Assembly: GCA_963718875.1 (NCBI GenBank)
Contig: OY970378.1
Span: 477,373-541,372, forward strand
DNA length: 64,000 nucleotides
Origin: Candidatus Parcubacteria bacterium
Lineage (GTDB): Bacteria; Patescibacteriota; Saccharimonadia; UBA4664; JBIOIQ01
Direction: 5' to 3'
Positions 11,560 through 54,037 of the stretch are shown here, in pieces (position 1 is the first letter of the stretch; every line of letters begins with the position of its first letter). The notes beneath the pieces were generated by a model. That model worked only from the letters and a program-made list of their open reading frames with translations. It was not told the DNA's origin and made no database searches. A program made the translations under genes and the position numbers.

Positions 11560-11711
11560 CAGCCACTAGCTAGCGAGAAGAACAGCAAGCTAATTGCCTA
11601 CTAGACCTTGCCGGTGTGCCCCGTAAGAGCACAAATGAAGTGTCCATCTGGATAAGCAGGGTGGTACCTCCCGTTAGAAGTAATGGGACCCTGCAAACGG
11701 ATGGTTTTTTT
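11560..11711 (+). promoter_or_regulatory. T-box leader upstream of ileS
   Basis: T-box sequence AGGGTGGTACC at 11658-11668, then a hairpin ending in T7 (11704-11710); RBS AGGAG at 11717-11721; 5' boundary approximate. Confidence 0.7.
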
Positions 11712-11728
11712 ATTGTAGGAGATGAAGA

Positions 11729-14700
11729 ATGAAAAAAGTCGAACAAGCTAACTTTCCCGAATTTGAGCAAGAGATGCTTAAAATATGGGATAAGGAAAAG
11801 ACTTTTGAACAAAGCCTAGAGCTACGAAAAGGATCCAAGCGGTTTAGTTTTTACGATGGGCCTCCTTTTGCTAATGGCCTGCCACATTATGGACACGTTG
11901 TAGCAATCACCGAAAAGGATTCGATGACACGTTACAAAACTATGCGTGGGTATTTTGTGCCTCGCCGGAATGGTTGGGACACTCATGGGCTACCGGTAGA
12001 GTATGAAGTCGAAAAACAGTTAGGTATTTCAGGGAAAAAACAGATACAGGAAATGGGAGTAGATAAGTTTAATGAAGCCGCCAGGGCCAGTGTCTTTAAA
12101 TACAAAGAGCATTGGGAAGATTTTATGACTCGTATTGGCCGATGGGCCGATAAAAACTCGTATGCTACTTTGGACGATAGCTATATTGAAAGTGTTTGGT
12201 GGGTTTTAGGTCAGCTTCATGAAAAGGGTTTGATATATCGAGGATTCCGCTCTAACCCGTATTGCCCACGATGCGCCACTCCTCTTTCTAATTTTGAGGT
12301 GAACCAGAATTATAAGGACAATGTGTTGGACCCAAGCGTTTTTGTGAAGTTCGCTTTGGTTGAAGATCCGAACACAAGCCTGCTGGCTTGGACGACGACT
12401 CCATGGACGCTTCCGGCCAATGCGGCTTTGGCTGTTGATTCGGCGGCTGAATACGTGACGGTAGAATTGTTGGCGGATGGTGATGGTTGGGAAAAGGGGG
12501 AGAAGCTGATACTCGCGAAGAAGCGGATTGGTGAACTGGATCTGAGGAAGGCTGAGTATAAGGTAGTTAAAACACAGCAGGGCAAAGAGTTAGTCAATAA
12601 AATGTACTCTTCATTGTATGACTTGGCGATGAAAAGGCCTCCCGTTGAGTGGTCAGGTGCATCCGAAGGTCAACCTGGCCGCCCCAGAGCCAACCAAGTT
12701 TATGAGGATGACTCGGTTAGTCTTGAGGATGGGACCGGTATTTTACATATTGCTCCAAGATATGGAGAAGCCGATCTAGATTTGGGCATTAGGGAAGACT
12801 TGCCACTAATAGAAAGCGTTGATGGTAATGGACTTATGGCGGAGTCTTTTAAAGAAATTTCCGGGCTTGAAGACATTGTCGGGATGTTTTTTAAGAAGGC
12901 TGACCCGTTAATTATCGAGGATCTAGCTAAAAAAGGTCGCATCTTTGCCGCCGAATCTTTTGAGCATACTTACCCGTTTTGTTGGCGCTGCGAAACGCCG
13001 TTGATGTATTTTGCTATGCCGAGCTGGTTTGTAAAGGTAACAGAATTAAGAGACAAGCTGGTGGCTAACAACGAAAAAATCAATTGGGTGCCTAAGCATA
13101 TTAAGACTGGTCGTTTTGGTAATTGGCTGGCCGAGGCGCGCGACTGGAATTTTAGCCGCAATCGGTTTTGGGGTGCGCCTATCCCAATTTGGGTTAATGT
13201 GGACGACGAAACTGACTTGATCATAATCAAGTCAGTCCAAGAGCTGGAAGAGCTTTCTGGAGTTAAAGGAATTGATTTGCATCGTCCGAGTATAGATGTG
13301 GTTATACTCGAGCGCGACGGCAAAACATATAAACGAGTGGAAGAGGTGTTTGACTGCTGGTTTGAAAGCGGGTCAATGCCTTATGCCCAAGATCATTATC
13401 CGTTTGATGATAAAGAGAATTTTGATGATAAATTTCCGGCGGAGTTTATAGCCGAAGGCTTGGATCAGACGCGGGGCTGGTTTTACACCCTCCATGTTCT
13501 TGGCACGGCTTTGTTTGACAAGCCGGCGTTTAAGAATGTTATTGTTCACGGAATGGTTCTGGCGGCAGACGGGAAAAAGCTTAGTAAAAGATTAAGAAAT
13601 TACCCTGAACCATCAGAAATTTTTAATGGGACTGGAGCTGATAGTCTAAGGTTTTTCCTTATGAGTAGCCCAGTTGAAAATGGCGAAGATGTTCGTTTTA
13701 GCTACGATGCAGTCAATGAAGTTAAGCGCAACGTCTTTATGACGCTATGGAACGTCTTATCCTTCTTTACGACCTATGCCGAAATTGATAAATGGAAACC
13801 GAATACAAAAATTGTACAGCCTAAATCAAATAATGTCTTAGACGAATGGATGCTTGTAAGGCTAAACCAAACAACAGCCATCATGACGAAAGCGGCGGAT
13901 AGCTACCAGATTTCAAAAGCCGTAGAACCTTTAAAGGACTTGATTGACGATTTATCCAATTGGTACGTAAGACGTAGTAGGCGAAGGTTTGCCAAGAACG
14001 AAAGTAAGGCTGATAAGCTTCAAGCATTTGAAACGTTGCACTACGTATTGTTGCGAACTTCACAACTACTTGCACCTTGGTCGCCGTTTGTAAGCGATAA
14101 GGTGTGGCGAATTATTACCGAGGGAATGGATATTCCCCGCTCTGTGCATTTGAGTGACTGGCCGGAAGTTGGAGAAATTAGTAATGGAATATTACTCAAT
14201 GACATGAAAGAAATGCGTGATTTAGTTACCGAAGGTTTGGCTCAGAGGGCGGCAGCAGGAATTAAGGTGCGCCAGCCTTTAGCAGATGCACGATACGCAG
14301 GCAAAAAGCTGGATGATAGGTTAGTTGAAATTGCGGCCGAAGAGCTCAACGTCAAGCGACTTATAAATGACCCCACAGAAGAGGAAATTTCAAGTCGATT
14401 TGAAAAGATTGTTCCCGGTTCGACTGGTTTCAAACATGAGCCAGGGTTGCCGTCCAAACTGGTTTCCGTAAGTCGATTGGATAATCTTGTTGATCAAGAT
14501 TCTGGTGTCGAACAACTTGAAGAAAGTTTGAGTATAAAAAAAATAATATTGAATACTGAAATGACTCAAGAGTTAAAGCTGGAAGGCTTGGCGCGGGATC
14601 TTATACGCCAAGTGCAAGTTGCGCGCAAAGAGGCCGATCTTCAAGCCAATGACGTCATAAATCTGCTACTTGGAGTTGAAGGCGAGGCTGCAGAGGCGGC

Positions 14701-14830
14701 AAAGGCTTATGCTGAGATGATAGGCCGCGAGACTCTTGCCCAAGACTTTAAGGTCAGTAACATTGATCCGAGTGTTGTTCCGATACGGTTGGCGGGACAC
14801 GATATTACAATTGATTTAAGTAAGGCCTGA
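11729..14830 (+). CDS. ileS: Isoleucyl-tRNA synthetase
   Basis: HIGH-type motif PHYGHV, KMSKS-type KLSKRL, CP1 editing region; 1033 aa. Confidence 0.95.
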   Translation: MKKVEQANFPEFEQEMLKIWDKEKTFEQSLELRKGSKRFSFYDGPPFANGLPHYGHVVAITEKDSMTRYKTMRGYFVPRRNGWDTHGLPVEYEVEKQLGISGKKQIQEMGVDKFNEAARASVFKYKEHWEDFMTRIGRWADKNSYATLDDSYIESVWWVLGQLHEKGLIYRGFRSNPYCPRCATPLSNFEVNQNYKDNVLDPSVFVKFALVEDPNTSLLAWTTTPWTLPANAALAVDSAAEYVTVELLADGDGWEKGEKLILAKKRIGELDLRKAEYKVVKTQQGKELVNKMYSSLYDLAMKRPPVEWSGASEGQPGRPRANQVYEDDSVSLEDGTGILHIAPRYGEADLDLGIREDLPLIESVDGNGLMAESFKEISGLEDIVGMFFKKADPLIIEDLAKKGRIFAAESFEHTYPFCWRCETPLMYFAMPSWFVKVTELRDKLVANNEKINWVPKHIKTGRFGNWLAEARDWNFSRNRFWGAPIPIWVNVDDETDLIIIKSVQELEELSGVKGIDLHRPSIDVVILERDGKTYKRVEEVFDCWFESGSMPYAQDHYPFDDKENFDDKFPAEFIAEGLDQTRGWFYTLHVLGTALFDKPAFKNVIVHGMVLAADGKKLSKRLRNYPEPSEIFNGTGADSLRFFLMSSPVENGEDVRFSYDAVNEVKRNVFMTLWNVLSFFTTYAEIDKWKPNTKIVQPKSNNVLDEWMLVRLNQTTAIMTKAADSYQISKAVEPLKDLIDDLSNWYVRRSRRRFAKNESKADKLQAFETLHYVLLRTSQLLAPWSPFVSDKVWRIITEGMDIPRSVHLSDWPEVGEISNGILLNDMKEMRDLVTEGLAQRAAAGIKVRQPLADARYAGKKLDDRLVEIAAEELNVKRLINDPTEEEISSRFEKIVPGSTGFKHEPGLPSKLVSVSRLDNLVDQDSGVEQLEESLSIKKIILNTEMTQELKLEGLARDLIRQVQVARKEADLQANDVINLLLGVEGEAAEAAKAYAEMIGRETLAQDFKVSNIDPSVVPIRLAGHDITIDLSKA

Positions 14831-14873
14831 TTCGGGTCGGCTTGATGCATAAAAAGCTGTACAATATACGGTA

Positions 14874-15983
14874 ATGCTTCGTAAACGGTTTTGGAAAAAC
14901 TTTGATTTTATTTTGCTAGTAGTAGCTTTGTTGCTGGCGCTTGTAGGCATATTGGTTTTGTACTCTATTGGTTTTAAGGTAGCGAACTTGGCTTCTCCTG
15001 TGGCTGTGCGTAACCAGATAGTTTTTGCCGTGATTGGTGTTGTGGGGCTGCTTGTTTTCGCGGTGGTTGATTATAGAAGTTGGACTAAGTTCACACCGTT
15101 CCTTTACGTTGCAATGGTAGTACTCCTAGGAGTTGTACTTATAGCAGGAAAGTCTGCACTGGGAGCAACCAGGTGGATCAACTTAGGGTTTTTCCAGTTT
15201 CAGCCTTCAGAATTAGCAAAATTGGTGTTGATTGTGATATTAGCGCGCTTTTTTGCAACACACTATGATCAAATGGACAAGCCTCGCTATATTATCCAAT
15301 CGGCTATTTATATGCTTATTCCAGCAGTCCTAGTTCTTACGCAACCCGATCTTGGTACAGCCATGGTTTTGGGCGTTATTTGGCTGGTAATGATTCTAAC
15401 CACAAAAGCGCCAAAAATGTTGTTTGTGGTGTTAGGAGTTGTGGGCTCAATGTTACTACCTACTGCATATCATTTTTTAGGCGACTATCAAAAAGCCCGC
15501 ATCGCGGTGTTTCTAAATCCTTCGGTTGATCCTCAAGGGCGTGGGTTCAATGTTATCCAATCGACTATTGCAGTAGGGAGTGGGCAGCTTTTTGGCCGGG
15601 GTCTAGCTGCTGGTAGCCAGAGCCAACTCAACTTTTTGCCCAGCCAGCATACTGACTTTATATTTGCGGTCTTGACCGAGAAGATGGGGTTTATCGGTGG
15701 TTCCTTGTTGCTGTTAATGTTTGGCTTGTTACTCGCCAGAGGACTATTAATAGCTTATCGTGCCCAAGATCGTTTTGGGCTATTTCTAGCGGTTGGTATA
15801 GTAACGATGTTTGCGTTTCATGTTTTTATTAATGTAGGGATGAACATGGGGATTATGCCGGTTACAGGGATACCATTGCCGTTTGTCAGCTACGGTGGCA
15901 CCAGCTTACTGATAGGAATGATTGGAGTGGGACTATTGGAGTCTGTTAATGTTCGGCGCAAAAAACTGGAGTTTGGAAACTAA
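14874..15983 (+). CDS. SEDS-family peptidoglycan polymerase (FtsW/RodA)
   Basis: About ten TM helices, FQPSELAK and DFIFAV motifs; cannot distinguish FtsW from RodA. Confidence 0.85.
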   Translation: MLRKRFWKNFDFILLVVALLLALVGILVLYSIGFKVANLASPVAVRNQIVFAVIGVVGLLVFAVVDYRSWTKFTPFLYVAMVVLLGVVLIAGKSALGATRWINLGFFQFQPSELAKLVLIVILARFFATHYDQMDKPRYIIQSAIYMLIPAVLVLTQPDLGTAMVLGVIWLVMILTTKAPKMLFVVLGVVGSMLLPTAYHFLGDYQKARIAVFLNPSVDPQGRGFNVIQSTIAVGSGQLFGRGLAAGSQSQLNFLPSQHTDFIFAVLTEKMGFIGGSLLLLMFGLLLARGLLIAYRAQDRFGLFLAVGIVTMFAFHVFINVGMNMGIMPVTGIPLPFVSYGGTSLLIGMIGVGLLESVNVRRKKLEFGN

Positions 15984-16052
15984 AAATTTATAAAACACTG
16001 GCTTTGTTTTTTTTGATATAATCGAGGTGGCGAAGAGGAGGAAGGTGGATCT

Positions 16053-16454
16053 ATGCAGACGAATGCTGTGCGTTTACGCCAGTTACGTCCGCGCAAGAAA
16101 GACTTGAATTTCTTCACGGTTGAGGACATGCAACGATGGGCTCGGAACCGCCGCAAACCTCCTTACATACCAGTGCAAACGGCAACAGCTGCTTTTGGCC
16201 TGATTTTGCAGCAGGCTAATATACTGGAAATTGAGGTGAGGTGTGCACTAGGCAGTAACTGTAGAATCAAGGTAGGGTGGACTCTAGGCAAGAAAAGATA
16301 TTGCACGGCGGTCCACTGGGTGAATCGTCGTGATTTTGTCCGCTGTCGGTTCGAAACGTTCCGCTCAGTTAAACGAGGTGGGCCTGTACTCGCCGGAACG
16401 CTTTGCCGCTACCAGGAGTACCTGAGGCATGGAGGGGGGAGGAAGGTCGCTTAA
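16053..16454 (+). CDS. Hypothetical basic Cys-containing 133-aa protein (alternatively a structured rplU leader)
   Basis: Extended -10 TGATATAAT at 16013-16021, purine-rich SD before the ATG; stop codon sits in the loop of hairpin GGAGGAAGGT..ACCTTCCTCC; the 5' GGAGGAAGGT at 16039-16048 could pair alternatively with the same 3' arm. Confidence 0.35.
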   Translation: MQTNAVRLRQLRPRKKDLNFFTVEDMQRWARNRRKPPYIPVQTATAAFGLILQQANILEIEVRCALGSNCRIKVGWTLGKKRYCTAVHWVNRRDFVRCRFETFRSVKRGGPVLAGTLCRYQEYLRHGGGRKVA

Positions 16455-16534
16455 GGGCTACCTTCCTCCCATGGTCTTTACATACGAGGCCAAACCTGGT
16501 ATTATTCCAAGGTTATCAATTTAAGAAAAGTTAT

Positions 16535-16834
16535 ATGCAAGCAATTATCACCACTGGTGGCAAACAATACATCGTAGCCAAGGACCAAACTCTAGAGGTA
16601 GAGTTATTGGGCGAAGTCAAAAAACTTGAATTTGACGTACTTATGACTATGGATGGGGATAAATTTCAAGTTGGCGCACCTTTTGTGGCTGGTGTTAAAG
16701 TAAAGGCCGAAGTGTTAGAGGAAACAAAGGGTGAAAAAATTAAAGTTTTAAAGTTTAAGGCGAAAAAGCGCGTCAAAAAGCTTACTGGCCACCGTCAGCA
16801 CTATTCCAAGATTAAAATCGTCTCCATCGGTTAA
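16535..16834 (+). CDS. rplU: 50S ribosomal protein L21
   Basis: MQAIITTGGKQYIV.. start; ORF track start 16403 is an upstream extension. Confidence 0.9.
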   Translation: MQAIITTGGKQYIVAKDQTLEVELLGEVKKLEFDVLMTMDGDKFQVGAPFVAGVKVKAEVLEETKGEKIKVLKFKAKKRVKKLTGHRQHYSKIKIVSIG

Positions 16835-16835
16835 A

Positions 16836-16861
16836 AAGCCGCCCAACCGGGCGGTTTTTTA
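16836..16861 (+). terminator. Intrinsic terminator after rplU
   Basis: GCCGCCC-AACC-GGGCGG followed by T6. Confidence 0.85.
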
Positions 16862-16953
16862 GTTAAGGCTCAAATATTGGATTGCTACTTGAAATATTTA
16901 TAATCAACACATATAATGGTGGTACCGTCAATCAAGCCTTAGGAGGCCGACGA

Positions 16954-17499
16954 ATGCTCAAGAGACCCCTTATCACGCGTCCGATTGAGGATGTTGTCGC
17001 GGACATCCTCGATCTCGATCTCGGACCGATCAGGTTCACGCTCGTTCGTCGAGGCTGGACCGGAGGTCTGGCTGACCGCTTCATCACGGAGTACCGCCGC
17101 CTTCTTGAGCTGATGGTGCGGTTTCCAGATGATGTCATCGTCCCTTCGGAGGACGTGGATACCGTCTGGCACACCCACATCCTCGACACGGCCAGGTACC
17201 GCGATGACTGCATGCGGATCTTCGGCTTCTTCCTCGACCATTTCCCGTATTTGGGCACGCGTGGATCTGACGACGAGGATGAACTTCGTCGGCTGTACAC
17301 CCGATCGCGGGAGCTGTATGAGCAGACGTTCGGCCATCGGACGGTGTCTACGGCATCGGCCTGCTCCGCGTTCGGAGCTGGGAATGGAGATGTACCCGTT
17401 CCAGCTCTGGTTGGAGCAGCCACAGTGGCGTATTGTGGCGGGGGTGGCGGAAAGCCGTCGTCTGCTCCTAGCTACCACCAAGGTGGTAGCTGTGGCTGA
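16954..17499 (+). CDS. G+C-rich foreign-looking gene: glycine-rich-domain (GRDP/DUF1399-like) protein
   Basis: AGGAGG 7 nt before ATG 16954; DTVWHTHILDT motif and Gly-rich tail; G/C-biased third positions; strong hairpin GTTGATGGTGGCGG..CCGCCACCATCAAC downstream. Confidence 0.6.
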   Translation: MLKRPLITRPIEDVVADILDLDLGPIRFTLVRRGWTGGLADRFITEYRRLLELMVRFPDDVIVPSEDVDTVWHTHILDTARYRDDCMRIFGFFLDHFPYLGTRGSDDEDELRRLYTRSRELYEQTFGHRTVSTASACSAFGAGNGDVPVPALVGAATVAYCGGGGGKPSSAPSYHQGGSCG

Positions 17500-17628
17500 G
17501 GGTCTTGAAGTAAGGTTGATGGTGGCGGTTACGGCCGCCACCATCAACTTGATACAAATGTTTATGAAGTTAGCTCGTTCGCACCATAACCGGTAATCTG
17601 GTACAATCTACTCTAGAAACGAGGGATT

Positions 17629-18387
17629 TTGAGTAAGATAATTGCCATCACAAATCAAAAAGGTGGAGTGGGTAAGACTACTACGACTATTAATTTGGGT
17701 ACGTATTTGGCTAAGGCCAAAAAGAAGGTCTTGATTGTTGATCTAGACCCACAAGGCAATACCTCTAGTGGATTAGGAATTGATAAACAAAGCTTGAAGC
17801 AAGATTTGTACAGCGTGATGGTTGATGGCTTGGACCCAGGCAAAGTGATTATCCGTACGCCTTTTCACGGTCTTGAGGTTTTGCCATCAGCACCGGTTCT
17901 CGCGGCAGCTGAGCTAGAGCTGGTGTCGGCTCCGGCAAGGGAGTTTCGTCTGAGTAAGGCTATTCGAGAGCTTCCATACGATTACGTTTTGATTGACTGT
18001 CCTCCGTCACTAGGGCTATTAACTATAAATGGTTTGGTTGCGGCACATTCCGTGATGATACCCGTGCAAGCTGAATTTTATGCGCTAGAGGGTTTAGGGC
18101 AGCTTATTACAACAGTCCAAAGGGTTAAGAAAGCCTTAAATCCTAATTTGGACCTTTTGGGTGTGCTTGTAACCATGCATAATGGACGTACTACTTTAAG
18201 CACTCAGGTGCATGATGAGGTGAAACGGCATTTTCCCGATAAGATTTTTTCAACAGTCATTCCACGAAATGTTCGCTTGGCTGAAGCGCCTAGCTACGGC
18301 AAGCCGATTAGCCACTACGATAAATGGAGCAAGGGTGCTAAAGGGTATAAGCAGCTAGCGACAGAAGTGATTAAGCGTACGAAATGA
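17629..18387 (+). CDS. parA: Chromosome partitioning ATPase ParA/Soj
   Basis: Deviant Walker A KGGVGKTT; TTG start after GAGGGA. Confidence 0.9.
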   Translation: MSKIIAITNQKGGVGKTTTTINLGTYLAKAKKKVLIVDLDPQGNTSSGLGIDKQSLKQDLYSVMVDGLDPGKVIIRTPFHGLEVLPSAPVLAAAELELVSAPAREFRLSKAIRELPYDYVLIDCPPSLGLLTINGLVAAHSVMIPVQAEFYALEGLGQLITTVQRVKKALNPNLDLLGVLVTMHNGRTTLSTQVHDEVKRHFPDKIFSTVIPRNVRLAEAPSYGKPISHYDKWSKGAKGYKQLATEVIKRTK

Positions 18388-18543
18388 CGAGCTTGCAAGG
18401 TAAGAGCATTAAGTCTTTATGTCCGCGTTCGACCACAGGGAATTTTATTAGTCATTCTCTCTGTAACAAACAAAACTTGCATAGGCTTAATGTTTTTAAC
18501 CGCATAGGTTATACTTGAAGCATGAGCAGTACAGAGGCACGAT

Positions 18544-19446
18544 ATGGGAGGTAATAAAGGTTTAGGACGAGGGTTTGATTCACTAATACCTACGCAGTTG
18601 GTGGAGGAAGAGTTTGACCCGACTGCTAGCACGAGTAATAGCGAAGGGTCTAGACCTTCGGCCGACTCTATTTATCAAATTGATTTAAAGTTGGTGGATC
18701 CAAACCCGCACCAGCCGCGGTTAGTGTTTGATGATGCGGCACTAGACGAACTTGCTGCATCGATAAGACAACACGGCATACTACAGCCAATTATTGTTAC
18801 CGAACAAGGCGAGGGACGTTATCAGTTGATTGCGGGCGAGCGGCGTCTGCGAGCAGCGAAATTAGCGAGCCTTAAAACAATCCCTGGCATAGTGCGTAGT
18901 TTTACCGATCAACAGAAGCTTGAGCTGGCTTTGATTGAAAATCTCCAACGCCAAGATCTTAACCCTATCGAAACAGCCACAGCTTACCGTAAACTGGTTG
19001 ATCAATTTAACCTTACGCTAGACACTATTGGAAAAAAAGTTGGGAAGGATACTTCAACTATCTCAAACAGTATGAGATTGCTTAATTTGCCGCTTGAAGC
19101 CAAGAGGGCGGTGGCTAGCGGCCAGATGACTGAGGGGCATGGGCGGACGATTCTAACAGTTCTTAATCCTGAAAAGCAGCTGGTGTTATGTAGGATGATT
19201 ATTGCTAATGATTGGTCTGTGCGTCAAGCTGAGGAGTTTGCTCGCGGATTTAAAGAGCCGAGTGCAACAAAAGACACGGCTTTGAAAAGGATTGCCGAGA
19301 CCAATGAAGTTACCCAGTCTCTGAGTAACTATTTGGGCGCAAAGGTAACCTTGCGTCATACTGCAAGAGGGGGGCGTTTAACAATTGAATACTACTCTGA
19401 AGAGGAATTAGATCGCATTTACCGGGCGATTAAATCGGATAGCTAA
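18544..19446 (+). CDS. parB: Chromosome partitioning protein ParB/Spo0J
   Basis: GERRLRAA and LIENLQRQDLNP motifs, HTH region. Confidence 0.9.
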   Translation: MGGNKGLGRGFDSLIPTQLVEEEFDPTASTSNSEGSRPSADSIYQIDLKLVDPNPHQPRLVFDDAALDELAASIRQHGILQPIIVTEQGEGRYQLIAGERRLRAAKLASLKTIPGIVRSFTDQQKLELALIENLQRQDLNPIETATAYRKLVDQFNLTLDTIGKKVGKDTSTISNSMRLLNLPLEAKRAVASGQMTEGHGRTILTVLNPEKQLVLCRMIIANDWSVRQAEEFARGFKEPSATKDTALKRIAETNEVTQSLSNYLGAKVTLRHTARGGRLTIEYYSEEELDRIYRAIKSDS

Positions 19447-19452
19447 GATTTG

Positions 19453-20298
19453 CTACAGCAGGGATTGAACTAGCTTTGGTAGGTCTTGAGATACTAGAGA
19501 AAAGAGGCGGAACTTGTCGAGTGGCAGCAACCGAACAGCAGCAGTGCCAACAATTTGTTTTGAGGGTAAAAATCCCCATTCTCGAGAGTCAAAAGATCCA
19601 TTTGGACTGCGGTTATCTCCGAGGACAAAAATACTTCCTTCGGGAACGATGTCGTCAAAAGTGCCTTGAGTGGTCTCGGTTGCGCGTTGGTAAGTTGTAA
19701 GGTCCGGGTCGATACCCTGTGGGTTGAGTTTATTAAAAACTCTGACACGGCCATCTTTTATAACTACATGCTCACCCGGCAGACCAATAACTCGTTTTAC
19801 AAAAATTAGGTTAGGATCTCTAGGGTAGTGGAACACAACGACGTCATAGCGATTAGGTATATAGGCGGAGTTCTTAAATCCGCTAATAGATTTTCCAATT
19901 TTTGACACTATGAGGTAATCAGTGTCATGGAGCGTTGGGTCCATGCTTTGGCCTACAACGTGAAAGGCTTGAAAGACAAAATTGTGCAGAATAAATACTA
20001 TGATAATCGGTATAATAACCCAGTTTAAGATACCAAAGAATATTGACGATATGGCCGAGAAGGCAGTTGATCCCATGTGATTTGACTTGGCCTCGGGTTC
20101 GCTCGAAACACTTTCTGCTGCACCTACTGGGTTTGCCGGGCTGTTACTTTGTTCGTTGTCTGGTGGACTGGGCGGATTGGTTATAGGCTGAGGTGTGGAG
20201 GGTAAAGGCTCCACTTGGCTCGCGAGAGAATTGGTATTCACCGGCTGAGTTGGCGGTACTTGGTTTGGGTTCGGGTTGGTGGGAGTATCGTCATTCAT
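19453..20298 (-). CDS. lepB: Signal peptidase I with Pro-rich N-terminal extension
   Basis: GQSMDPTL (Ser box), GDNRSPNGSFDSREWG; about 75-aa Pro/Asn/Ser-rich segment before the TM helix. Confidence 0.9.
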   Translation of the reverse strand: MNDDTPTNPNPNQVPPTQPVNTNSLASQVEPLPSTPQPITNPPSPPDNEQSNSPANPVGAAESVSSEPEAKSNHMGSTAFSAISSIFFGILNWVIIPIIIVFILHNFVFQAFHVVGQSMDPTLHDTDYLIVSKIGKSISGFKNSAYIPNRYDVVVFHYPRDPNLIFVKRVIGLPGEHVVIKDGRVRVFNKLNPQGIDPDLTTYQRATETTQGTFDDIVPEGSIFVLGDNRSPNGSFDSREWGFLPSKQIVGTAAVRLLPLDKFRLFSLVSQDLPKLVQSLL

Positions 20299-20425
20299 AC
20301 TTAAACTACTATACGCGTTGCATAGATTTGCAGCAAGCTACGAGCTAAGGCTAGTTGTGCTTTTTGGTAAATTATAGCTGTTAATGGTTTACTCTTAACG
20401 GTTATGTCGTTTATACTTAAGCGTA

Positions 20426-21862
20426 ATGGATGAACTCAGCCGACAAAAAATGCGTCGCGCCAACGGCTTCGCAAGGACTACTTTTGGTGGATTTGAACAT
20501 ACTAGAGCAGCAGAAAGGATTGCGCCTGCGGTAGTAGCCTCGCCAAAGGAAGTCTTTGATTATAAAAAAACCAAAATGCCTAAAGTGCATCGATATCGTT
20601 CGACAAAAACGATTGCAGTTATGTCCGCTGCCGTACTAGGCATAACAGTGGTATTTTTTGGGGTAAAAATTGTTTTAGCGACTAATAAGGTTATAACTCG
20701 GAATAATACTGGTGGAGCGCCGGCGCTTTCTAGTGGTACCGTGGTACCAAGTAAACTAAAAGGGGAAGGTGACGGTCGGGTAAACATTTTGCTTATGGGT
20801 ATTGGTGGTGCTGGACATCCCGGAGGATTGCTTAGTGACACCATGATGGTTGTAAGTATTGACCCAAATACCAAAGACACAGCAATGTTAAGCATCCCGA
20901 GAGACTTATGGGTGCAAATTCCCGGTAAGGGAATGAGTAAAATTAATGCCGCGAACGCTTATGGAGGGCCTGAGGTGGCCAAGACGGTGGTCGCTAAAAC
21001 ACTAGATATACCAATACATTACTACGTTCAGCTTGATTTCCAGGGTTTCAAACTGGCAGTTGATCAAGTGGGGGGGATAAACGTTGTGAATGCGACGGCA
21101 TTAAATGATTCTGGGTATCCATGTGATGATGGCGGCGCCTGTCCTTATTATTTGGCCGCTGGAGAGCATTTGCTCAATGGTGCGCAAGCACTTAAGTTTG
21201 CGCGTTGTCGCGAAGGTACATGTGGTAGTAACTATGGTCGGGAAGATCGGCAGCGTCAAAGTTTGCTGGCTTTACGCCAAAAAGCTATGGCTATTTCAAC
21301 TCTCACAAATCCGGTAAAAATTGCCAGCTTAATTGACATTGTTGGCGGGCATCTAAAAACTGATTTACAAATAGCTGATATGGCTAAATTGGCAACTATT
21401 GCAAAATTAGTGGATCCGGATTCTGTTGTGATGAAGGGTCTTGATGATTATACCCTTAGTGGTATGGTGGCTGGTCAAAGTGTAGTGTTGCCAAAGACTG
21501 GAAACTTTGGCGAGATTCGTAATTTTGCTCATTCGATCTTTATCGACACTTATATAAAGCAAGAAAACGCTAGTATAGCGGTGCAAAACGGTACTTCAAG
21601 ATCAGGGTTAGCGGCTACGGTAGGGGCGTTATTAGAAGATACGTACAAATATAACGTAGTTTCAACTACGACTGCTGACAACCAAAACTACCCCACGACT
21701 ATAATTTTTGATTACAGTAATGGTAAAAAGCCCTACACGGTCAATTATTTGGCAACAAGGTTTGGTGTCAAGGTTCAGCGTGCTACGGCTCCGGCTGGAA
21801 ATGTTGCTGACATAAAAATTATTCTTGGAGCCGATTATCATCCTACCGTCATTTCTCGTTAA
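20426..21862 (+). CDS. LytR-CpsA-Psr (LCP) family cell-wall polymer transferase
   Basis: TM anchor, RVNILLMGIGG..SDTMMVVSIDP..LSIPRDL core, LytR_C-like tail. Confidence 0.85.
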   Translation: MDELSRQKMRRANGFARTTFGGFEHTRAAERIAPAVVASPKEVFDYKKTKMPKVHRYRSTKTIAVMSAAVLGITVVFFGVKIVLATNKVITRNNTGGAPALSSGTVVPSKLKGEGDGRVNILLMGIGGAGHPGGLLSDTMMVVSIDPNTKDTAMLSIPRDLWVQIPGKGMSKINAANAYGGPEVAKTVVAKTLDIPIHYYVQLDFQGFKLAVDQVGGINVVNATALNDSGYPCDDGGACPYYLAAGEHLLNGAQALKFARCREGTCGSNYGREDRQRQSLLALRQKAMAISTLTNPVKIASLIDIVGGHLKTDLQIADMAKLATIAKLVDPDSVVMKGLDDYTLSGMVAGQSVVLPKTGNFGEIRNFAHSIFIDTYIKQENASIAVQNGTSRSGLAATVGALLEDTYKYNVVSTTTADNQNYPTTIIFDYSNGKKPYTVNYLATRFGVKVQRATAPAGNVADIKIILGADYHPTVISR

Positions 21863-21909
21863 CGACTATAAAGCTACGGTAGGTAAATGTAGTATAATCG
21901 TAAAAACAG

Positions 21910-22662
21910 ATGAAATCGTGGAAGTTAAATTTCTCTTCGGCAACTATTTATAACAGCCTACTTACTTTTATAATAGTGCTACTAGCTATCGCCCATCAAC
22001 CGGCTTTAGCAGTCGGTGTGTTGCTTGCAGATGAGGCGTGGCGCTGGTGGCGACATGATGAGCGGAGCTTGGAATTTATACAAGCTGATAGCTGGTTATG
22101 GCTTAGCGGCATCGCTAGTATAATAATTATTAGCCTTAGCCCAAATTTTGCGATGCAGTTAATATTGTCTATTCTGTTTAGTACCTGGCGCTGGTGGCTC
22201 TTGGCTCGTTTTGAGGTTTCGGAAAATCCCCCTATGATCGTAGCCGCTATTACTCAATCACTAGTGTTGTGGGCGGTGTTTCTAGCTACCGCGGTTTGGC
22301 ATTGGCCAACTATTTTAGTATTAGTCATCATATGGGGGTGCAGCTGGACTATAGCTTGGCAGGTGTTTGCATCCGTAAAGGACAGGGCGGCTGGAGCCTT
22401 AGCTTTGACTTGGGCTTTGATTGTGGCAGAGAGCTCTTGGGTGTTCTCGCTTTGGCTGGTTAATTACGTGGTCTTTAATGGACTACTTATAATTCCTCAG
22501 CCGGCGCTTGTAATAAGTGCCTTGGGTTATTGCTTGGCGGGTATTTATACCTCGCATCGCCGAAGCCAGTTGACTCGCAAACGTTTAGTTGAGTATCTGA
22601 CCATCGGTTTGGTGATCTTGGTTATTGTCATAGCTGGGACTAAATGGAATGGGGTTATTTAG
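21910..22662 (+). CDS. Trp-rich polytopic membrane protein, unknown function
   Basis: 250-aa ORF with six to seven hydrophobic helices; no motif recognised. Confidence 0.55.
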   Translation: MKSWKLNFSSATIYNSLLTFIIVLLAIAHQPALAVGVLLADEAWRWWRHDERSLEFIQADSWLWLSGIASIIIISLSPNFAMQLILSILFSTWRWWLLARFEVSENPPMIVAAITQSLVLWAVFLATAVWHWPTILVLVIIWGCSWTIAWQVFASVKDRAAGALALTWALIVAESSWVFSLWLVNYVVFNGLLIIPQPALVISALGYCLAGIYTSHRRSQLTRKRLVEYLTIGLVILVIVIAGTKWNGVI

Positions 22663-22798
22663 AATTTTTAACTTAAATAGTTTTTATTTGTGAAAGCTTA
22701 AGTTCAAAAACTGGAATGTAGGTGGGTTAAAGTAAGGTCTTTCTCAGCTCATTGTTGGTATAATAAGTTTGTAATCATTTTGTAAACGAAGGACTCTC

Positions 22799-41237: not shown

Positions 41238-41315
41238 ACTTGTGAAGACACTTTTTTTGCGCTAAATTAAAGCCAGCGCCGGACCAGCCGTCGCCTGTTT
41301 CGTGGAGGATGAATC

Positions 41316-41723
41316 TTGAGCCCACTTGAGGTTGCCGCTCTGAAGAGCCTGAATAAGGCTCGCAGAGCATGGGGATTGCCTTCGTGGCCGGCGCTGGTTC
41401 CGGCTACACCGTCCGACCCCTGTGGATGCGAGTTCTGGAAGGGGCTGGTCGACGGAGACCCATTGGTCTCGGTCGGAGCAGATCACATCATTGCTGGCCG
41501 AGATGCTGCTCGAGTCATCTATGCCGCCTTTGGCAGACTTGATGACGAGGGGAGAAGATGGGAGGTTCTGAGGGGAGATCTGGTCAAGATCAGGATGAGA
41601 GATACTCTCGCGAGCTTCGTGGAGGCCTTCGACGAGCGCCGTTTTCCTCATCTCATCGACGACGAGGCGGACGAGGCGTACCGGGTTAAGAGGGCGGCCG
41701 AGCAGACATTGGTTTCTGCCTAA
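41316..41723 (+). CDS. G+C-rich foreign-looking hypothetical 135-aa protein
   Basis: GGAGG 7 nt upstream of TTG 41316; acidic C-terminus; composition differs from flanking lysK/serS; the overlapping minus-strand ORF is judged an artefact. Confidence 0.5.
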   Translation: MSPLEVAALKSLNKARRAWGLPSWPALVPATPSDPCGCEFWKGLVDGDPLVSVGADHIIAGRDAARVIYAAFGRLDDEGRRWEVLRGDLVKIRMRDTLASFVEAFDERRFPHLIDDEADEAYRVKRAAEQTLVSA

Positions 41724-41738
41724 TTGCTGCGCAACATG

Positions 41739-41780
41739 ATCCACCGTCGGTGGGGGGTTATCCCTCCACCGACGGTGGAT
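41739..41780. terminator. Strong G+C-rich palindrome / terminator
   Basis: ATCCACCGTCGGTGG..CCACCGACGGTGGAT, 15-bp perfect arms. Confidence 0.7.
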
Positions 41781-51282: not shown

Positions 51283-51336
51283 CTTGCAAGAAGTACAAAT
51301 ACAAATCTAATACAAAATACTTGCTTCGCATTAACC

Positions 51337-51403
51337 TGCAAGCAGTTATTGTTTCGTTAACTAGGGGAGACCTATGATGTTAGCGAAACGTTATCTGCTT
51401 GCA
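51337..51403 (+). promoter_or_regulatory. 25-nt inverted repeat upstream of the G+C-rich island
   Basis: TGCAAGCAGTTATTGTTTCGTTAAC (51337-51361) vs reverse complement of GTTAGCGAAACGTTATCTGCTTGCA (51379-51403); four mismatches. Confidence 0.5.
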
Positions 51404-51512
51404 TGAAACTGTGCAAGCGAGGATTCGACACTTAGTCGAATTCAGTTGCTCTACCGAACATACAGAAACCACAGACCAGGGTGAGAACTCTGGCAGAGCA
51501 AAGGAAAAGACC

Positions 51513-52448
51513 ATGTCCGACCAGACCGGAGGACCCGGTACCACCGCCCCACCCCGCCGACCCACGCTCCAGGAGCTCGCCGACCAGGCGAGAGCCACGA
51601 TCGAGGAGCAGGCTCGACAGGCGAATGACCTCCAGGGTCAGCGCTCCGCCATCAACGCGATCAGCGGTCGAGTGGCGCAGCACGACGACGCCATCGCTGA
51701 CCTCCGGGACGCTTCGGCCCAGCAGGCCGACGCCGTGGACCGCCTCGGCCAGCGCACGCTGGTGGTCGAGGGACGCACGGACTCGTTGGAGGACTTGGCT
51801 CGCGCCAACGCCGCCGGCGTGGCCGGGCTGACCGCCAACATGGCTGACCTGACCACCAACGTCAACACGCTGGCCACCACGGTGGGCCAGCACGACACCC
51901 GTCTCGACGCCGTCGAGGACGCCGTGACGCCGGCCGCTATGCGGACGGTCGTCACCGAGGTGGTCGAGGAGCGCATGCGCGCTGTTCGGTTCAACTGGGT
52001 GGCCTTCGCCGTGGTGGCGATCGTGGGCTTCATCATCGACCTGTTGGTGTTCTCCGAGATGGGGAGCTTCAACAGCGCCGAGGCGCCGAAGCTCTCCAAG
52101 CACCTCACGGACGTCATGCACACGCAGAACTTCCTGGCCGTCATGCTCGTTGTCCTGGCCCTCGCCATACTCATCGCCCTCATCGTTCCGGTGGTCGGGC
52201 AGGACGAGCGTCCCAGGCAGGACCGCCAGCCCAGGCCGCCTCGGCAGCCCGGATCCGGCGGTGGTTTCATGGCCGGTCTTCGCAACGTTTGGAGGAGGGG
52301 TCGCGGTACGCCCGCTGCCACTGCGCCCATCCCGGCCAACTCCACGCCGGTGGCGACGACGAACCCGTCGGCCTCGTCCAACGCGCCCACTCAGGTGCTG
52401 CCGGCGGTGCCGACGTCCGGTCCGACGCCCTCATCGGGCAACCCGTAG
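51513..52448 (+). CDS. High-G+C island gene A: coiled-coil protein with two TM helices and a Pro-rich tail
   Basis: AAGGAAAAG before ATG 51513; third codon positions almost all G/C; Ala/Asp/Leu periodic N-terminal ~160 aa, TM helices FNWVAFAVVAIVGFIIDLLVF and FLAVMLVVLALAILIALIVPVV, then RPRQDRQPRPPRQPGSGGG.. Confidence 0.7.
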   Translation: MSDQTGGPGTTAPPRRPTLQELADQARATIEEQARQANDLQGQRSAINAISGRVAQHDDAIADLRDASAQQADAVDRLGQRTLVVEGRTDSLEDLARANAAGVAGLTANMADLTTNVNTLATTVGQHDTRLDAVEDAVTPAAMRTVVTEVVEERMRAVRFNWVAFAVVAIVGFIIDLLVFSEMGSFNSAEAPKLSKHLTDVMHTQNFLAVMLVVLALAILIALIVPVVGQDERPRQDRQPRPPRQPGSGGGFMAGLRNVWRRGRGTPAATAPIPANSTPVATTNPSASSNAPTQVLPAVPTSGPTPSSGNP

Positions 52449-52517
52449 TCCACGCGGTTCTTCAAGTGGATTGTCCCAATTCAAATACCTCCTAGCGTCA
52501 AGCAAAGAGGGAACAAC

Positions 52518-52547
52518 CCTCTGTCCGCCCTTCGGGGCGGACAGAGG
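52518..52547 (+). terminator. Hairpin terminator after island gene A
   Basis: CCTCTGTCCGCCC-TTCG-GGGCGGACAGAGG. Confidence 0.7.
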
Positions 52548-52647
52548 AGCAACTTTTACTTCCATGGATAGTAGTCCGCGTGAGAAGCAATTCTTACTCG
52601 GTTTCTGTTCATGGTGCAATCGGCACCCAAACGATAAGGAGGGTGCC

Positions 52648-53826
52648 ATGAGCACCAGAAGAGGTCCTGTTCTGATCATCGTGTGTCTGCTGATGGCAGC
52701 GGGGGCTTTGCTGTTCAAGTACGGCAACGGCCCAACGCCGGCAGTGGCACAGACGCCGCCCACGGTGCCCGTTTCGGACGTCTGCAAGGACGTCCCGGGC
52801 AACGTGCCGAGGTGGTTTGCCAAGGAGACCGACGGCAACAAGTTCGGTCCGGCGGCTCCGTTTGACCTTGGTCCCGCCAGGAAGGCTCAGCACGAGGTCC
52901 TGTGCCTCGACCCGGCCAACCTGGTGATCACCCAGGAGACCATCGACGGGAAGTTCAGCAGTCCGGCAAACCGGGCTGCCCGGACTCGCGTTCTCGTTGC
53001 CAACCCCACTGCGCGGTTGGCAGCGGTGGCCTATGTGCAGGCAGAGTTGGCCAAGGCCAAGGAGGTTCGGCTGGAGGTCCACACGGGACCCTACCAGACC
53101 TTCTACATGACCACCGACGGCGACGTGCCGGAGGTGTTCCAGTCTGCAGGGAGCTTCACCGAGGCACGGCACGTTCTCGTGTACGACTTCGGTAACGGTC
53201 GCACGGTCAACTTCGTACTGGAGTGCAACTTCCAGGGGGAGTTCCCCGGGCCGGTCAAGAACGTGCCGGTGGCAACGCCGGGCACTGTGCCGGCGCTGGT
53301 TCAGCCGGGGCCCACCAGCCCGCCGCCGACGACGTGCCAGTCGACCAACACCTGTTCGACCGTGACCAGCCCACCGCCCGTGTGCTGCGGACCGCCCCCG
53401 ACGACGTGTCAGGTCAACTGCGGTCCGCCCCCGACGACGTGTCAGGTCAACTGCGGTCCGCCGCCGACGACGTGTCAGGTCAACTGCGGTCCGCCGCCGA
53501 CGACGTGTCAGGTCAACTGCGGTCCGCCGCCGACCGTTTGCACACACAAGTGCGCGGGAGAGGACGTTGCGGTCAGTCCGAGTCTGGATCCTGTCGTTTC
53601 GGGACTGGCTGCGGGCAATGCCGCACCCACTGCGGTGGCAACACCGGTCGTGACGGCGCCTCCGGCGCCGCCTCCGCCCGTGACCACAGCCACGCCACCC
53701 GTGACGGCTCTGCCGTCCTCCGATGGCGTGGCAGCTCCACCGCCTGTAGTGGCTCCACCGTACGTGGCGCCCGATGCGGGCACTCCGTCCAACCCGACGA
53801 CGGGAACCATTCCGCCGCCGCCGTAG
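52648..53826 (+). CDS. High-G+C island gene B: secreted or anchored protein with CGPPPTTCQVN tandem repeats and a Pro/Ala/Val-rich tail
   Basis: AAGGAGGG RBS 5 nt before ATG 52648; N-terminal signal/anchor MSTRRGPVLIIVCLLMAAGALLF; ~220-aa globular region; 11-aa Cys/Pro repeats; ORF track start 52150 overlaps gene A and the terminator. Confidence 0.7.
   Translation: MSTRRGPVLIIVCLLMAAGALLFKYGNGPTPAVAQTPPTVPVSDVCKDVPGNVPRWFAKETDGNKFGPAAPFDLGPARKAQHEVLCLDPANLVITQETIDGKFSSPANRAARTRVLVANPTARLAAVAYVQAELAKAKEVRLEVHTGPYQTFYMTTDGDVPEVFQSAGSFTEARHVLVYDFGNGRTVNFVLECNFQGEFPGPVKNVPVATPGTVPALVQPGPTSPPPTTCQSTNTCSTVTSPPPVCCGPPPTTCQVNCGPPPTTCQVNCGPPPTTCQVNCGPPPTTCQVNCGPPPTVCTHKCAGEDVAVSPSLDPVVSGLAAGNAAPTAVATPVVTAPPAPPPPVTTATPPVTALPSSDGVAAPPPVVAPPYVAPDAGTPSNPTTGTIPPPP
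53386..53535 (+). repeat. 33-bp tandem repeat, about 4.5 copies, in frame within gene B
   Basis: TGCGGTCCGCC(C/G)CCGACGACGTGTCAGGTCAAC repeated head to tail with one or two substitutions. Confidence 0.95.
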
Positions 53827-54037
53827 GACACCACTTCTGCCCATTCGGGCAGGGGTCTACCCCAGGGTCTGGGGTGGTGCGCAAGCGCCACCCCGCCCTG
53901 TGGGTATACATATTCTTAATGATTTTGGATTATTCGATTGCTCCAAGGGTTAGTGCCCTTTAACATTTAGCGTCCAACTTAACTTGTAGATCATATTAAA
54001 TTCATTTTAACGTTCATTATTTAAAAGGAGAGCACAT

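Follow-up and report, generated by a model that had tools for sequence, protein, structure and literature searches.

Glycine-rich domain proteins (GRDPs) have been described in plants, in which AtGRDP1 and AtGRDP2, of about 787 amino acids (aa), combine an N-terminal DUF1399 with an RNP-1 motif (KGSCFLPM) and a long glycine-rich domain (PMC4299439). GRDP2 pairs the DUF1399 with a Gly/Cys-rich region of consensus [CG]GGGCGG[GC] (PMC4299439). The phenotypes attributed to the plant proteins concern stress tolerance, auxin, and ovule and seed development, and are not informative on biochemistry. Fused or long-leader architectures are found in precursors of peptide natural products, such as the plant BURP-domain cyclases with repeated core peptides and precursors with NHLP/Nif11-type leaders, and single-gene islets gained horizontally occur in bacteria of the candidate phyla radiation (CPR) and Saccharibacteria. 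A gene for a GRDP-like protein of 181 aa lies between rplU and parA in a 64,000-nucleotide stretch of contig OY970378.1, positions 477,373 to 541,372 of the forward strand (assembly GCA_963718875.1, Candidatus Parcubacteria bacterium). This whole stretch is called the window here, and all positions without a locus name refer to it. The best explanation of the locus, to which a probability of about 0.6 is assigned, is that the gene was acquired by its host lineage, that it belongs to a large uncharacterised family, and that its product consists of two parts, a conserved helical domain and a variable tail on which this domain may act.

Insertion of a single gene between rplU and parA

MreB of the window clusters at 90% identity or more with proteins of Candidatus Saccharimonadia/Saccharimonadales, and homologues of its ParA bear the same names, identifying the host as a Saccharimonadia (TM7/Patescibacteria) bacterium. 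Synteny was compared in the three closest examinable ParA relatives, with ParA proteins 90, 84, and 83% identical to that of the window. They have in common the gene order ileS-rodA-(small open reading frame, ORF)-rplU-parA-parB-lepB-lytR-htrA, and the gap from rplU to parA measures 118, 149, and 98 bp in these relatives versus 794 bp in the window. Both genes are adjacent in the P0075 contig and in loci L173, L174, and L175, and the segment 16862..17572 is absent from these three loci (alignment A2) and from the gene list of the P0075 contig. Given the direct adjacency of rplU and parA in three relatives, this segment of about 711 bp (+ strand, boundaries good to a few bases) is a lineage-specific insertion of one gene; a single-gene insertion is what the original prediction had proposed. 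As judged from this alignment, it was gained after the split from relatives with ParA 83-90% identical.

The junctions can be placed with the aid of native signals on either side. rplU (16535-16834; Pfam Ribosomal_L21p, E 9e-29) is followed by its native terminator hairpin at 16838..16860 (+ strand), GCCGCCCAACCGGGCGG and then TTTTTT, which forms the left boundary and aligns with the terminator after rplU in L173, L174, and L175; a scan registered the G+C stem at the same positions on the - strand. The right boundary is the native parA promoter block at 17573..17628 (+ strand), TTCGCACCATAACCGGTAATCTGGTACAATC, which contains a promoter-like site at 17578-17607 and aligns with the block 5' of parA in L173-L175. 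In the spacer alignment, the rplU terminator and the pre-parA block TTCGCACCATAA..TACAATC are common to the window and its relatives. parA itself (17629-18387; AAA_31, E 7e-62) follows, with parB next. Between the two boundaries the insert comprises a 79-bp AT-rich leader with a G+C content (GC) of 0.33, a 612-bp G+C-rich part (GC 0.596) with the ribosome-binding site, the ORF, and a hairpin, and finally 20 AT-rich bases.

The insert thus constitutes a self-contained one-gene unit, as far as its signals can be read from sequence. In the leader, the promoter-like site TTGAAA-17-TATAAT (16889..16917, + strand) agrees with the consensus at 11 of 12 positions and is the top-scoring site in 16400-17900, as a consensus match alone. 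A perfect AGGAGG ribosome-binding site (16941..16946, + strand) lies 7 nt 5' of the ATG, and the coding sequence of the UCP032817-like/GRDP-like protein runs from this ATG at 16954 to a TGA at 17499 (16954..17499, + strand, 546 bp). A hairpin with a perfect 14-bp stem and a 6-nt loop (inverted repeat I1, 17515..17548, + strand) starts 16 nt past the stop codon; its arms, GTTGATGGTGGCGG at 17515-17528 and CCGCCACCATCAAC at 17535-17548, are 100% complementary. The predicted RNA fold reaches -36.3 kcal/mol (z -5.9), and none of 200 shuffles folds as well. It is not called a canonical intrinsic terminator because only TT comes after it, and it is probably either a terminator or an mRNA-stabilising stem. 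The ribosome-binding site, the strong G+C hairpin, and the other elements that had been predicted are all present, with small corrections of coordinates, including those of the gene (16954-17499). An integron cassette or a REP-like element (a repetitive extragenic palindrome) was considered and rejected, since attC would require another polarity of the hairpin arms and since the arm sequence has no second copy within the window. The antisense ORFs said to span the gene fully are likewise present (16939-17547, 202 aa, and 16932-17423, 163 aa, in the ORF listing). They were rejected as genuine genes, since homology lies on the + strand and the frame has 2-7 stops in less G+C-rich homologues; because it is closed there, the open frames are explained, in agreement with the prediction, as a composition artefact arising from the avoidance of A-ending codons.

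A fragment of a G+C-rich organism might have been joined in chimerically during assembly. The foreign composition of the gene and the evident origin of the assembly, a single 1.19-Mb contig (1,189,924 bp), from a metagenome or an enrichment would fit such an artefact. However, the extra DNA sits exactly inside the intergenic spacer, between the native terminator and the native promoter of parA, and includes host-like AT-rich DNA with a promoter-like site; a 711-bp chimeric insert with two clean junctions is in itself very unlikely. An assembly artefact is therefore regarded as extremely improbable, and the insertion is taken to be real.

A target-site duplication was also considered and is not supported, as only a 5-base AGTTA is common near both junctions and is regarded as chance. 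No Rfam family, tRNA and rRNA included, reaches its gathering score in the 64 kb, ARAGORN not having been run. Upstream of rplU, an ORF of 133 aa (16053-16454, GC 0.52) lies between rodA and rplU; the z value of its G+C content at third codon positions (GC3) is 2.9, and no Pfam, NCBIfam, or PHROG match was obtained for it. At the same position, ORFs of 110-124 aa occur in the P0075 contig and in L174/L175. Only 62 bp separate rodA and rplU in L173, which makes the rodA-rplU spacer variable too.

The insertion provides a clean and datable case in which an episymbiont of reduced genome has taken up a single foreign gene with sequences resembling expression signals. Core housekeeping genes surround the site, with a ribosomal protein gene on one side and the partition operon on the other.

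Family, spread, and the meaning of the high G+C content

The product had been described as GRDP/DUF1399-like. The search with Pfam hidden Markov models (HMMs) bears this out: PF07173 (GRDP-like, formerly DUF1399) scores 25.4 bits versus a gathering cut-off of 22.7 (E 2.6e-5), matching aa 47-85 to profile positions 101-143 of 143, the last third, which holds the WH-x-H motif. The more precise family is PF27765 (PF27765.1, UCP032817-like), according to the precomputed protein-database annotation of the identical protein, P0001; the same family is listed for all 50 homologues. Among 1.84 billion protein cluster representatives, 6,534 were retrieved at E <= 1e-3 and 1,689 at E <= 1e-10. With the VWHTHILDT motif as the search pattern, about 600 loci each were found in GTDB (species genomes, at least 595) and JGI (metagenomes, 593). 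For the window protein, NCBIfam gave no family at E <= 1 and PHROGs no match. Foldseek against the PDB returned a best E of 3.6, and a profile search of PDB sequences found nothing, so that no solved structural relative was obtained from either.

Members of the family also occur in plasmids (38 records), phages (2 records), and IMG/VR (11 contigs). In L004 (8001-10417), an actinobacterial homologue with flanks of GC 0.70 is surrounded by DUF2637, DUF397, and HTH_31 genes typical of actinomycete mobile elements, with an HTH_58 gene after the homologue and a radical-SAM/SPASM gene 1 kb downstream. These occurrences on plasmids, in phages and IMG/VR contigs, and in a setting of mobile elements indicate that the family belongs to the mobile gene pool.

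The window protein is the sole member of its cluster and at most 40-53% identical to any other protein. In a neighbour-joining tree it stands on a long branch, about 50% identical to clades of Burkholderiales, Actinobacteria, and candidate phyla alike. No relative above about 53% identity was found in GTDB, JGI metagenomes, IMG/VR, plasmids, phages, or the 1.84 billion representatives, and for this reason no donor can be named. The top matches come from many lineages, mostly G+C-rich, with Burkholderiales and Streptomyces prominent, rather than all from one low-G+C lineage of similar composition, the outcome that would have spoken against the original prediction. On sequence comparison, the protein is a divergent singleton of a large, known, and uncharacterised family. 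Acquisition and family assignment, taken jointly, are very probable.

The composition of the gene departs strongly from that of its surroundings. Its GC is 0.599 (0.60) versus 0.457 in the rest of the window, a value reached by only 3.5% of 546-bp windows, and its GC3 is 0.654 versus a median of 0.423 over 60 window ORFs (robust sd 0.041, robust z 5.6). Synonymous codon choice is reversed: Phe is encoded by TTC in 89% of cases in the gene versus 16% in the host, Ile by ATC in 88 versus 17%, Leu by CTC in 41 versus 7%, and Thr by ACG in 62 versus 21%. The claim of G/C-biased third positions therefore stands, and the outlier test that had been suggested points to a foreign composition. As a separate observation, the GC of the syntenic 11-kb block (window 11700-22700) is 0.445 in the window, 0.476 in L173, and 0.547 in L174, with proteins 65-88% identical among relatives; as the values differ widely among close relatives, genomic G+C is evidently shifting within the group.

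Whether the high G+C content marks a G+C-rich donor is less clear, since the excess might be mainly a trait of the family in low-G+C genomes, produced by a gene-specific force (mRNA or codon selection, or biased repair), and the donor might have been of low or intermediate G+C. This explanation draws on a two-gene module in which a Peptidase_S9/BD-FAE hydrolase of 276-293 aa lies 59-114 bp downstream of the family gene, seen in four otherwise unrelated contigs of a subgroup with Cys-dense tails (L001 8001-9500; L087 7001-8508; L090 7257-8738; L091 6001-7538). In L001, L087, and L090, the family gene has a GC of 0.58-0.63 and a domain GC3 of 0.68-0.86, with flanks of GC 0.47-0.50, and its GC3 of 0.65-0.82 contrasts with 0.40-0.45 in the adjacent S9 hydrolase. 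The pair is old, with S9 proteins 34-46% identical and the UCP032817-like proteins 51-56%. Adjacent genes of equal age should drift alike to the composition of the host, and recent import therefore fails to explain why one of them stayed G+C-rich. On the other hand, the family gene is host-like in composition in L085 and L091, it matches its flanks in G+C-rich genomes, and a mechanism for a force of this kind is not known. The insertion in the window is moreover a fact, so that transfer happened either way. A family trait as the main cause is thus possible, with the odds against it, and the high G+C content may be partly a property of the gene in low-G+C genomes. The three low-G+C contigs weaken the inference of a G+C-rich donor and leave that of acquisition as it was.

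Other parts of the window are G+C-rich as well. The 546-bp windows with a GC of at least 0.58 are confined to the gene itself, a peak near 2.3 kb, and an island at 51.3-53.9 kb. The island (51300-53900) has 100-bp GC values of 0.62-0.76 (z 6-7) and sharp AT-rich edges of 0.26-0.37. It contains an ORF at 51399-52448 (349 aa; coiled-coil-like, hydrophobic, and Pro-rich segments; sub-threshold matches only) and a second one, of 392 aa, at 52648-53826 with a GGAGG in front of it; the product of the latter bears five CGPPPTTCQVN repeats, is Pro-rich at its end, and is a near-orphan with a single relative at 41% identity. Both strands have open frames in a further region, 41262-41744 (GC 0.58, GC3 z 4.9), which is flanked by serS and a gene resembling class-I lysyl-tRNA synthetase; the product of its 135-aa + strand ORF is recorded as a singleton. 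No Pfam or PHROG family scores above threshold with the ORFs of these two islands. The repeated import of high-G+C genes that had been suggested for the islands at 41.3 and 51.4 kb and the gene studied here is consistent with composition, the one line of evidence for it, and the islands are not tied to the same source. The short G+C peak at 2276-2800, in which 546-bp windows reach 0.58, includes a 102-aa - strand ORF (2447-2755, GC 0.60) with no Pfam match.

The two-part protein and its possible function

The conserved domain (aa 11-126, 16984..17331, + strand) has been delimited by an AlphaFold2 model and alignment A1 of 27 family members. The model shows six helices (aa 11-19, 24-32, 37-56, 66-77, 79-89, and 105-126), with a mean predicted local distance difference test score (pLDDT) of 94-98 in 10-residue blocks of aa 11-90 and 111-130 and of 80-84 for aa 91-110, the loop with H96. 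No hydrophobic helix appears in the predicted model outside the soluble bundle, and hence no transmembrane segment. Residues D69, H73, H75, L77, T79, Y82, H96, P98, and G101 are invariant in the alignment; W72, D78, D85, C86, F97, Y99, R103, and G104 are nearly so. The family motifs LDLxPI, WHxHILDT, and H[HD]FPY[LF]GxRG are all present, at aa 21-26, 71-79, and 95-104. The second appears as VWHTHILDT (17164..17190, + strand) with the invariant H73, H75, and T79, and the third as DHFPYLGTRG (17236..17265, + strand) with H96, P98, and G101. As all invariant residues of the family are retained, the ORF looks functional, to judge from its sequence.

The remainder of the protein is a tail predicted to be disordered (aa 127-181, 17332..17496, + strand), with pLDDT below 50 for aa 141-166 and 177-181, and rich in Cys and Gly; its 55 residues include 13 Gly, 9 Ala, 7 Ser, and 3 Cys. 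Of the WHTHIL-type motif and Gly-rich tail originally described, the motif is found as such, whereas the tail, in spite of its glycines, is better seen as the Cys/aromatic-rich variable region of the family. It contains a single AYCG (aa 159-162, 17428-17439) and ends in GGSCG. The RP-x-L end common in relatives is absent from the tail and from the other reading frames; the possibility of a frameshifted ancestral tail was rejected for the latter reason.

The tails of relatives are far more regular. Of the 158 homologues recovered with DNA, 153 have a 4-mer repeated in tandem, from 3 to 21 times (median 7), the spacers being variable. The repeated units, such as AYSG, AYCG, AFCG, AWCG, AHSG, and AMCG, are of the type A-[YFWHML]-[CS]-G, that is, a small residue, an aromatic or hydrophobic residue, Cys or Ser, and again a small residue, and within one protein they are usually all-Cys or all-Ser. 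The RP-x-L C-terminal end occurs in 130 of the 158. A second subgroup, with one member annotated Candidatus Saccharibacteria, has the Cys-dense tails already mentioned, without obvious repeats. Cys-dense tails of the Actinobacteria/CPR-type subgroup are, for example, CDGGSCDSGSCS and CGGSLCENPACSGNSC.

In Burkholderiales (loci L005-L084 and L093-L172), tandem units go together with a periplasmic CHASE-domain sensor, for example in L028 (3818-7143), L029 (2494-6726), and L009 (3448-6636). Of 80 genome loci, 74 have the sensor next to the family gene, with a median gap of about 300 bp. It is also found in 39 of the 45 metagenome loci with at least 1.5 kb upstream; in others it lies immediately downstream. 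It is the sole conserved neighbour in this order. Some genomes have a HisKA_3 kinase as its output and Variovorax has PAS-GGDEF-EAL, and its orientation varies, arguing for a functional link rather than a frozen synteny, though the loci sampled cluster phylogenetically. For Burkholderiales, a role in signalling is suggested by the CHASE neighbour, and the S9 hydrolase of the Cys-dense subgroup suggests proteolytic trimming elsewhere; that such trimming takes place at the RP-x-L end is speculation. On plasmids of Pseudomonas savastanoi (pPsv48C and the large plasmid of strain 1448A), a homologue without a tail was observed (L176 5860-7754; L177 4935-6670), directly followed by a gene of about 440 aa annotated as hypothetical and without a Pfam match.

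The tail is always fused to the domain, it has duplicated around a fixed core of 3-4 residues, its end is conserved, and no conserved tailoring enzyme lies nearby; for these reasons it is probably the substrate or payload of the domain. In the proposed mechanism, the six-helix domain would be cytoplasmic, with D69, H73, H75, D78, and H96 probably forming a metal site, and the disordered Cys/Gly-rich tail would be the variable payload of the family and probably the domain's own substrate. The domain would work in cis on the X-Cys/Ser-Gly unit or units of its tail, by a logic of fused enzyme and substrate, or of a long leader, such as that known from precursors of peptide natural products, and the outcome would be a modified peptide or a small product. 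Action in cis appears to be the most economical reading. The copy in the window would then represent a minimal orphan version with the single unit AYCG, acting without CHASE or S9 partners. This mechanism, a metallo-domain that acts on its own tail, is put forward tentatively.

The same residues might instead serve in a metal- or redox-handling protein, in which the His cluster of the domain and the Cys of the tail bind or buffer metal ions or react with oxidants, the tail remaining unprocessed. Invariant residues of the domain include three His and several Asp, tails of the Actinobacteria/CPR-type subgroup are Cys-dense, and the three Cys of the window tail would be in keeping with such a role. 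Many tails are, however, Cys-free, the top 4-mer being AYSG, AFSG, or AHSG in 44 of 153 (35, 6, and 3, respectively), and one Cys per 7-10 residues beside a conserved aromatic residue and Gly is untypical for chelation. The RP-x-L end and the CHASE and S9 neighbours would also be left unexplained. Metal or redox handling is accordingly held to be rather doubtful as the principal function.

Several points weigh against the combined account of acquisition, family, and a domain acting on its tail. At the insertion there is no mobility gene or integrase, tRNA, att-like site, convincing target duplication, or significant flanking direct repeat. The copy in the window lacks tandem units, the RP-x-L end, and a CHASE sensor or S9 hydrolase within 64 kb (the window ORFs gave no match to HMMs derived from the CHASE and S9 neighbours), so that what is concluded from relatives need not transfer to it. 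The Burkholderiales loci are clustered in the phylogeny, and part of the CHASE adjacency could be inherited synteny. The tail-less Pseudomonas homologues hint that a function of the domain independent of a tail is possible. Finally, the GC3 of the tail (0.49) is far below that of the domain (0.72), a difference that the account does not explain.

The gene of the window might also be a decaying hitchhiker, an orphan copy without a partner, with a degenerate tail, and of no use to its host. This would agree with the missing CHASE and S9 partners, the one AYCG unit without an RP-x-L end, the drop of GC3 in the tail, and the status of the protein as a singleton with no close relative. Against it, the ORF is intact and keeps all invariant and nearly all near-invariant residues, and it is equipped with a near-consensus promoter-like site, a perfect ribosome-binding site, and a strong hairpin; reduced genomes, of about 1.2 Mb, tend moreover to shed useless DNA fast. 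A mere hitchhiker is thus very unlikely, and the acquired gene looks functional, although its role may be a reduced or a different one, given the single unit and the lack of both an RP-x-L end and a partner.

Extended to the whole family, the proposal is bolder, and it is considered unlikely as it stands. The family might comprise unrecognised self-contained systems for peptide-derived products, in which a metallo-domain modifies the units of its own tail, in up to about 20 copies, the products serving as CHASE signals in Burkholderiales and being trimmed by the S9 hydrolase elsewhere; the window would hold a one-unit version captured by an episymbiont, possibly from a G+C-rich host. Such systems would be a candidate source of ligands for bacterial CHASE domains and, by extension, for plant DUF1399 proteins. 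If the domain does act on its tail, the function of DUF1399, the ligands of bacterial CHASE domains, and a possible new route to peptide-derived small molecules would become testable.

The architecture of the family is a more interesting lead than the gene of the window itself. A helical domain with invariant His and Asp and no solved structural relative is fused to arrays of tiny Cys/Ser units, it is tightly linked to CHASE sensors in hundreds of soil Burkholderiales, and it is homologous to the plant GRDP/DUF1399 proteins of uncharacterised biochemistry. In the literature searched, the combination of a His-rich domain, tandem Cys/Ser units, and CHASE or S9 linkage was not found, the returns being limited to plant GRDPs.

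Comparison with known systems

The insertion resembles the single-gene islets of CPR bacteria and Saccharibacteria in its foreign composition, its absence from syntenic relatives, and the patchy spread of its family, including plasmids and phages. It differs from them in having no integrase, tRNA, att site, or flanking repeat and in bringing its own promoter-like leader.

The likeness to BURP, NHLP, and Nif11 precursors is one of logic only. The family domain is fused to hypervariable repeats with a fixed core of 3-4 residues and a terminal motif, and few or no tailoring genes accompany it; unlike in those systems, there is no relationship of sequence or fold and no such Pfam match, and the window copy has one unit. 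When the locus was examined as that of a precursor of ribosomally synthesised and post-translationally modified peptides (RiPPs), no tailoring enzyme, protease, or exporter was found beside the window gene, whose neighbours are rplU and parA. Among relatives, the S9 hydrolase accompanies the family gene in some and the radical-SAM/SPASM gene in one.

Some cyanobacterial relatives are annotated as TIGR04222 membrane proteins. A Gloeothece plasmid gene of this annotation matches aa 12-127 of the window protein (31.7% identity, E 4e-7), and P0050 has a related layout, with the domain, transmembrane segments, and a GGSGCGGGGCS tail. In contrast to TIGR04222 proteins, the window protein has no NCBIfam match (E <= 1) and no transmembrane segment.

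The closest agreement is with the members of PF27765, with which the window protein has in common the motifs LDLxPI, WHxHILDT, and HHFPYLGxRG and the two-part layout, in which a variable tail comes after a domain of about 125 aa. It departs from most members examined, which carry 3-21 tandem units, by its single AYCG, the lack of an RP-x-L end, and the lack of a conserved partner nearby. With its 181 aa, no RNP-1-like motif, and a short Cys/Gly tail that is merely reminiscent of the plant region, it also differs from the plant GRDPs; it is like them in its PF07173 match above the gathering score and in its YCGGGGG, which resembles the GRDP2 consensus. As GRDP2 likewise joins a DUF1399 to a Cys/Gly-rich segment, the pairing of the two seems ancient.

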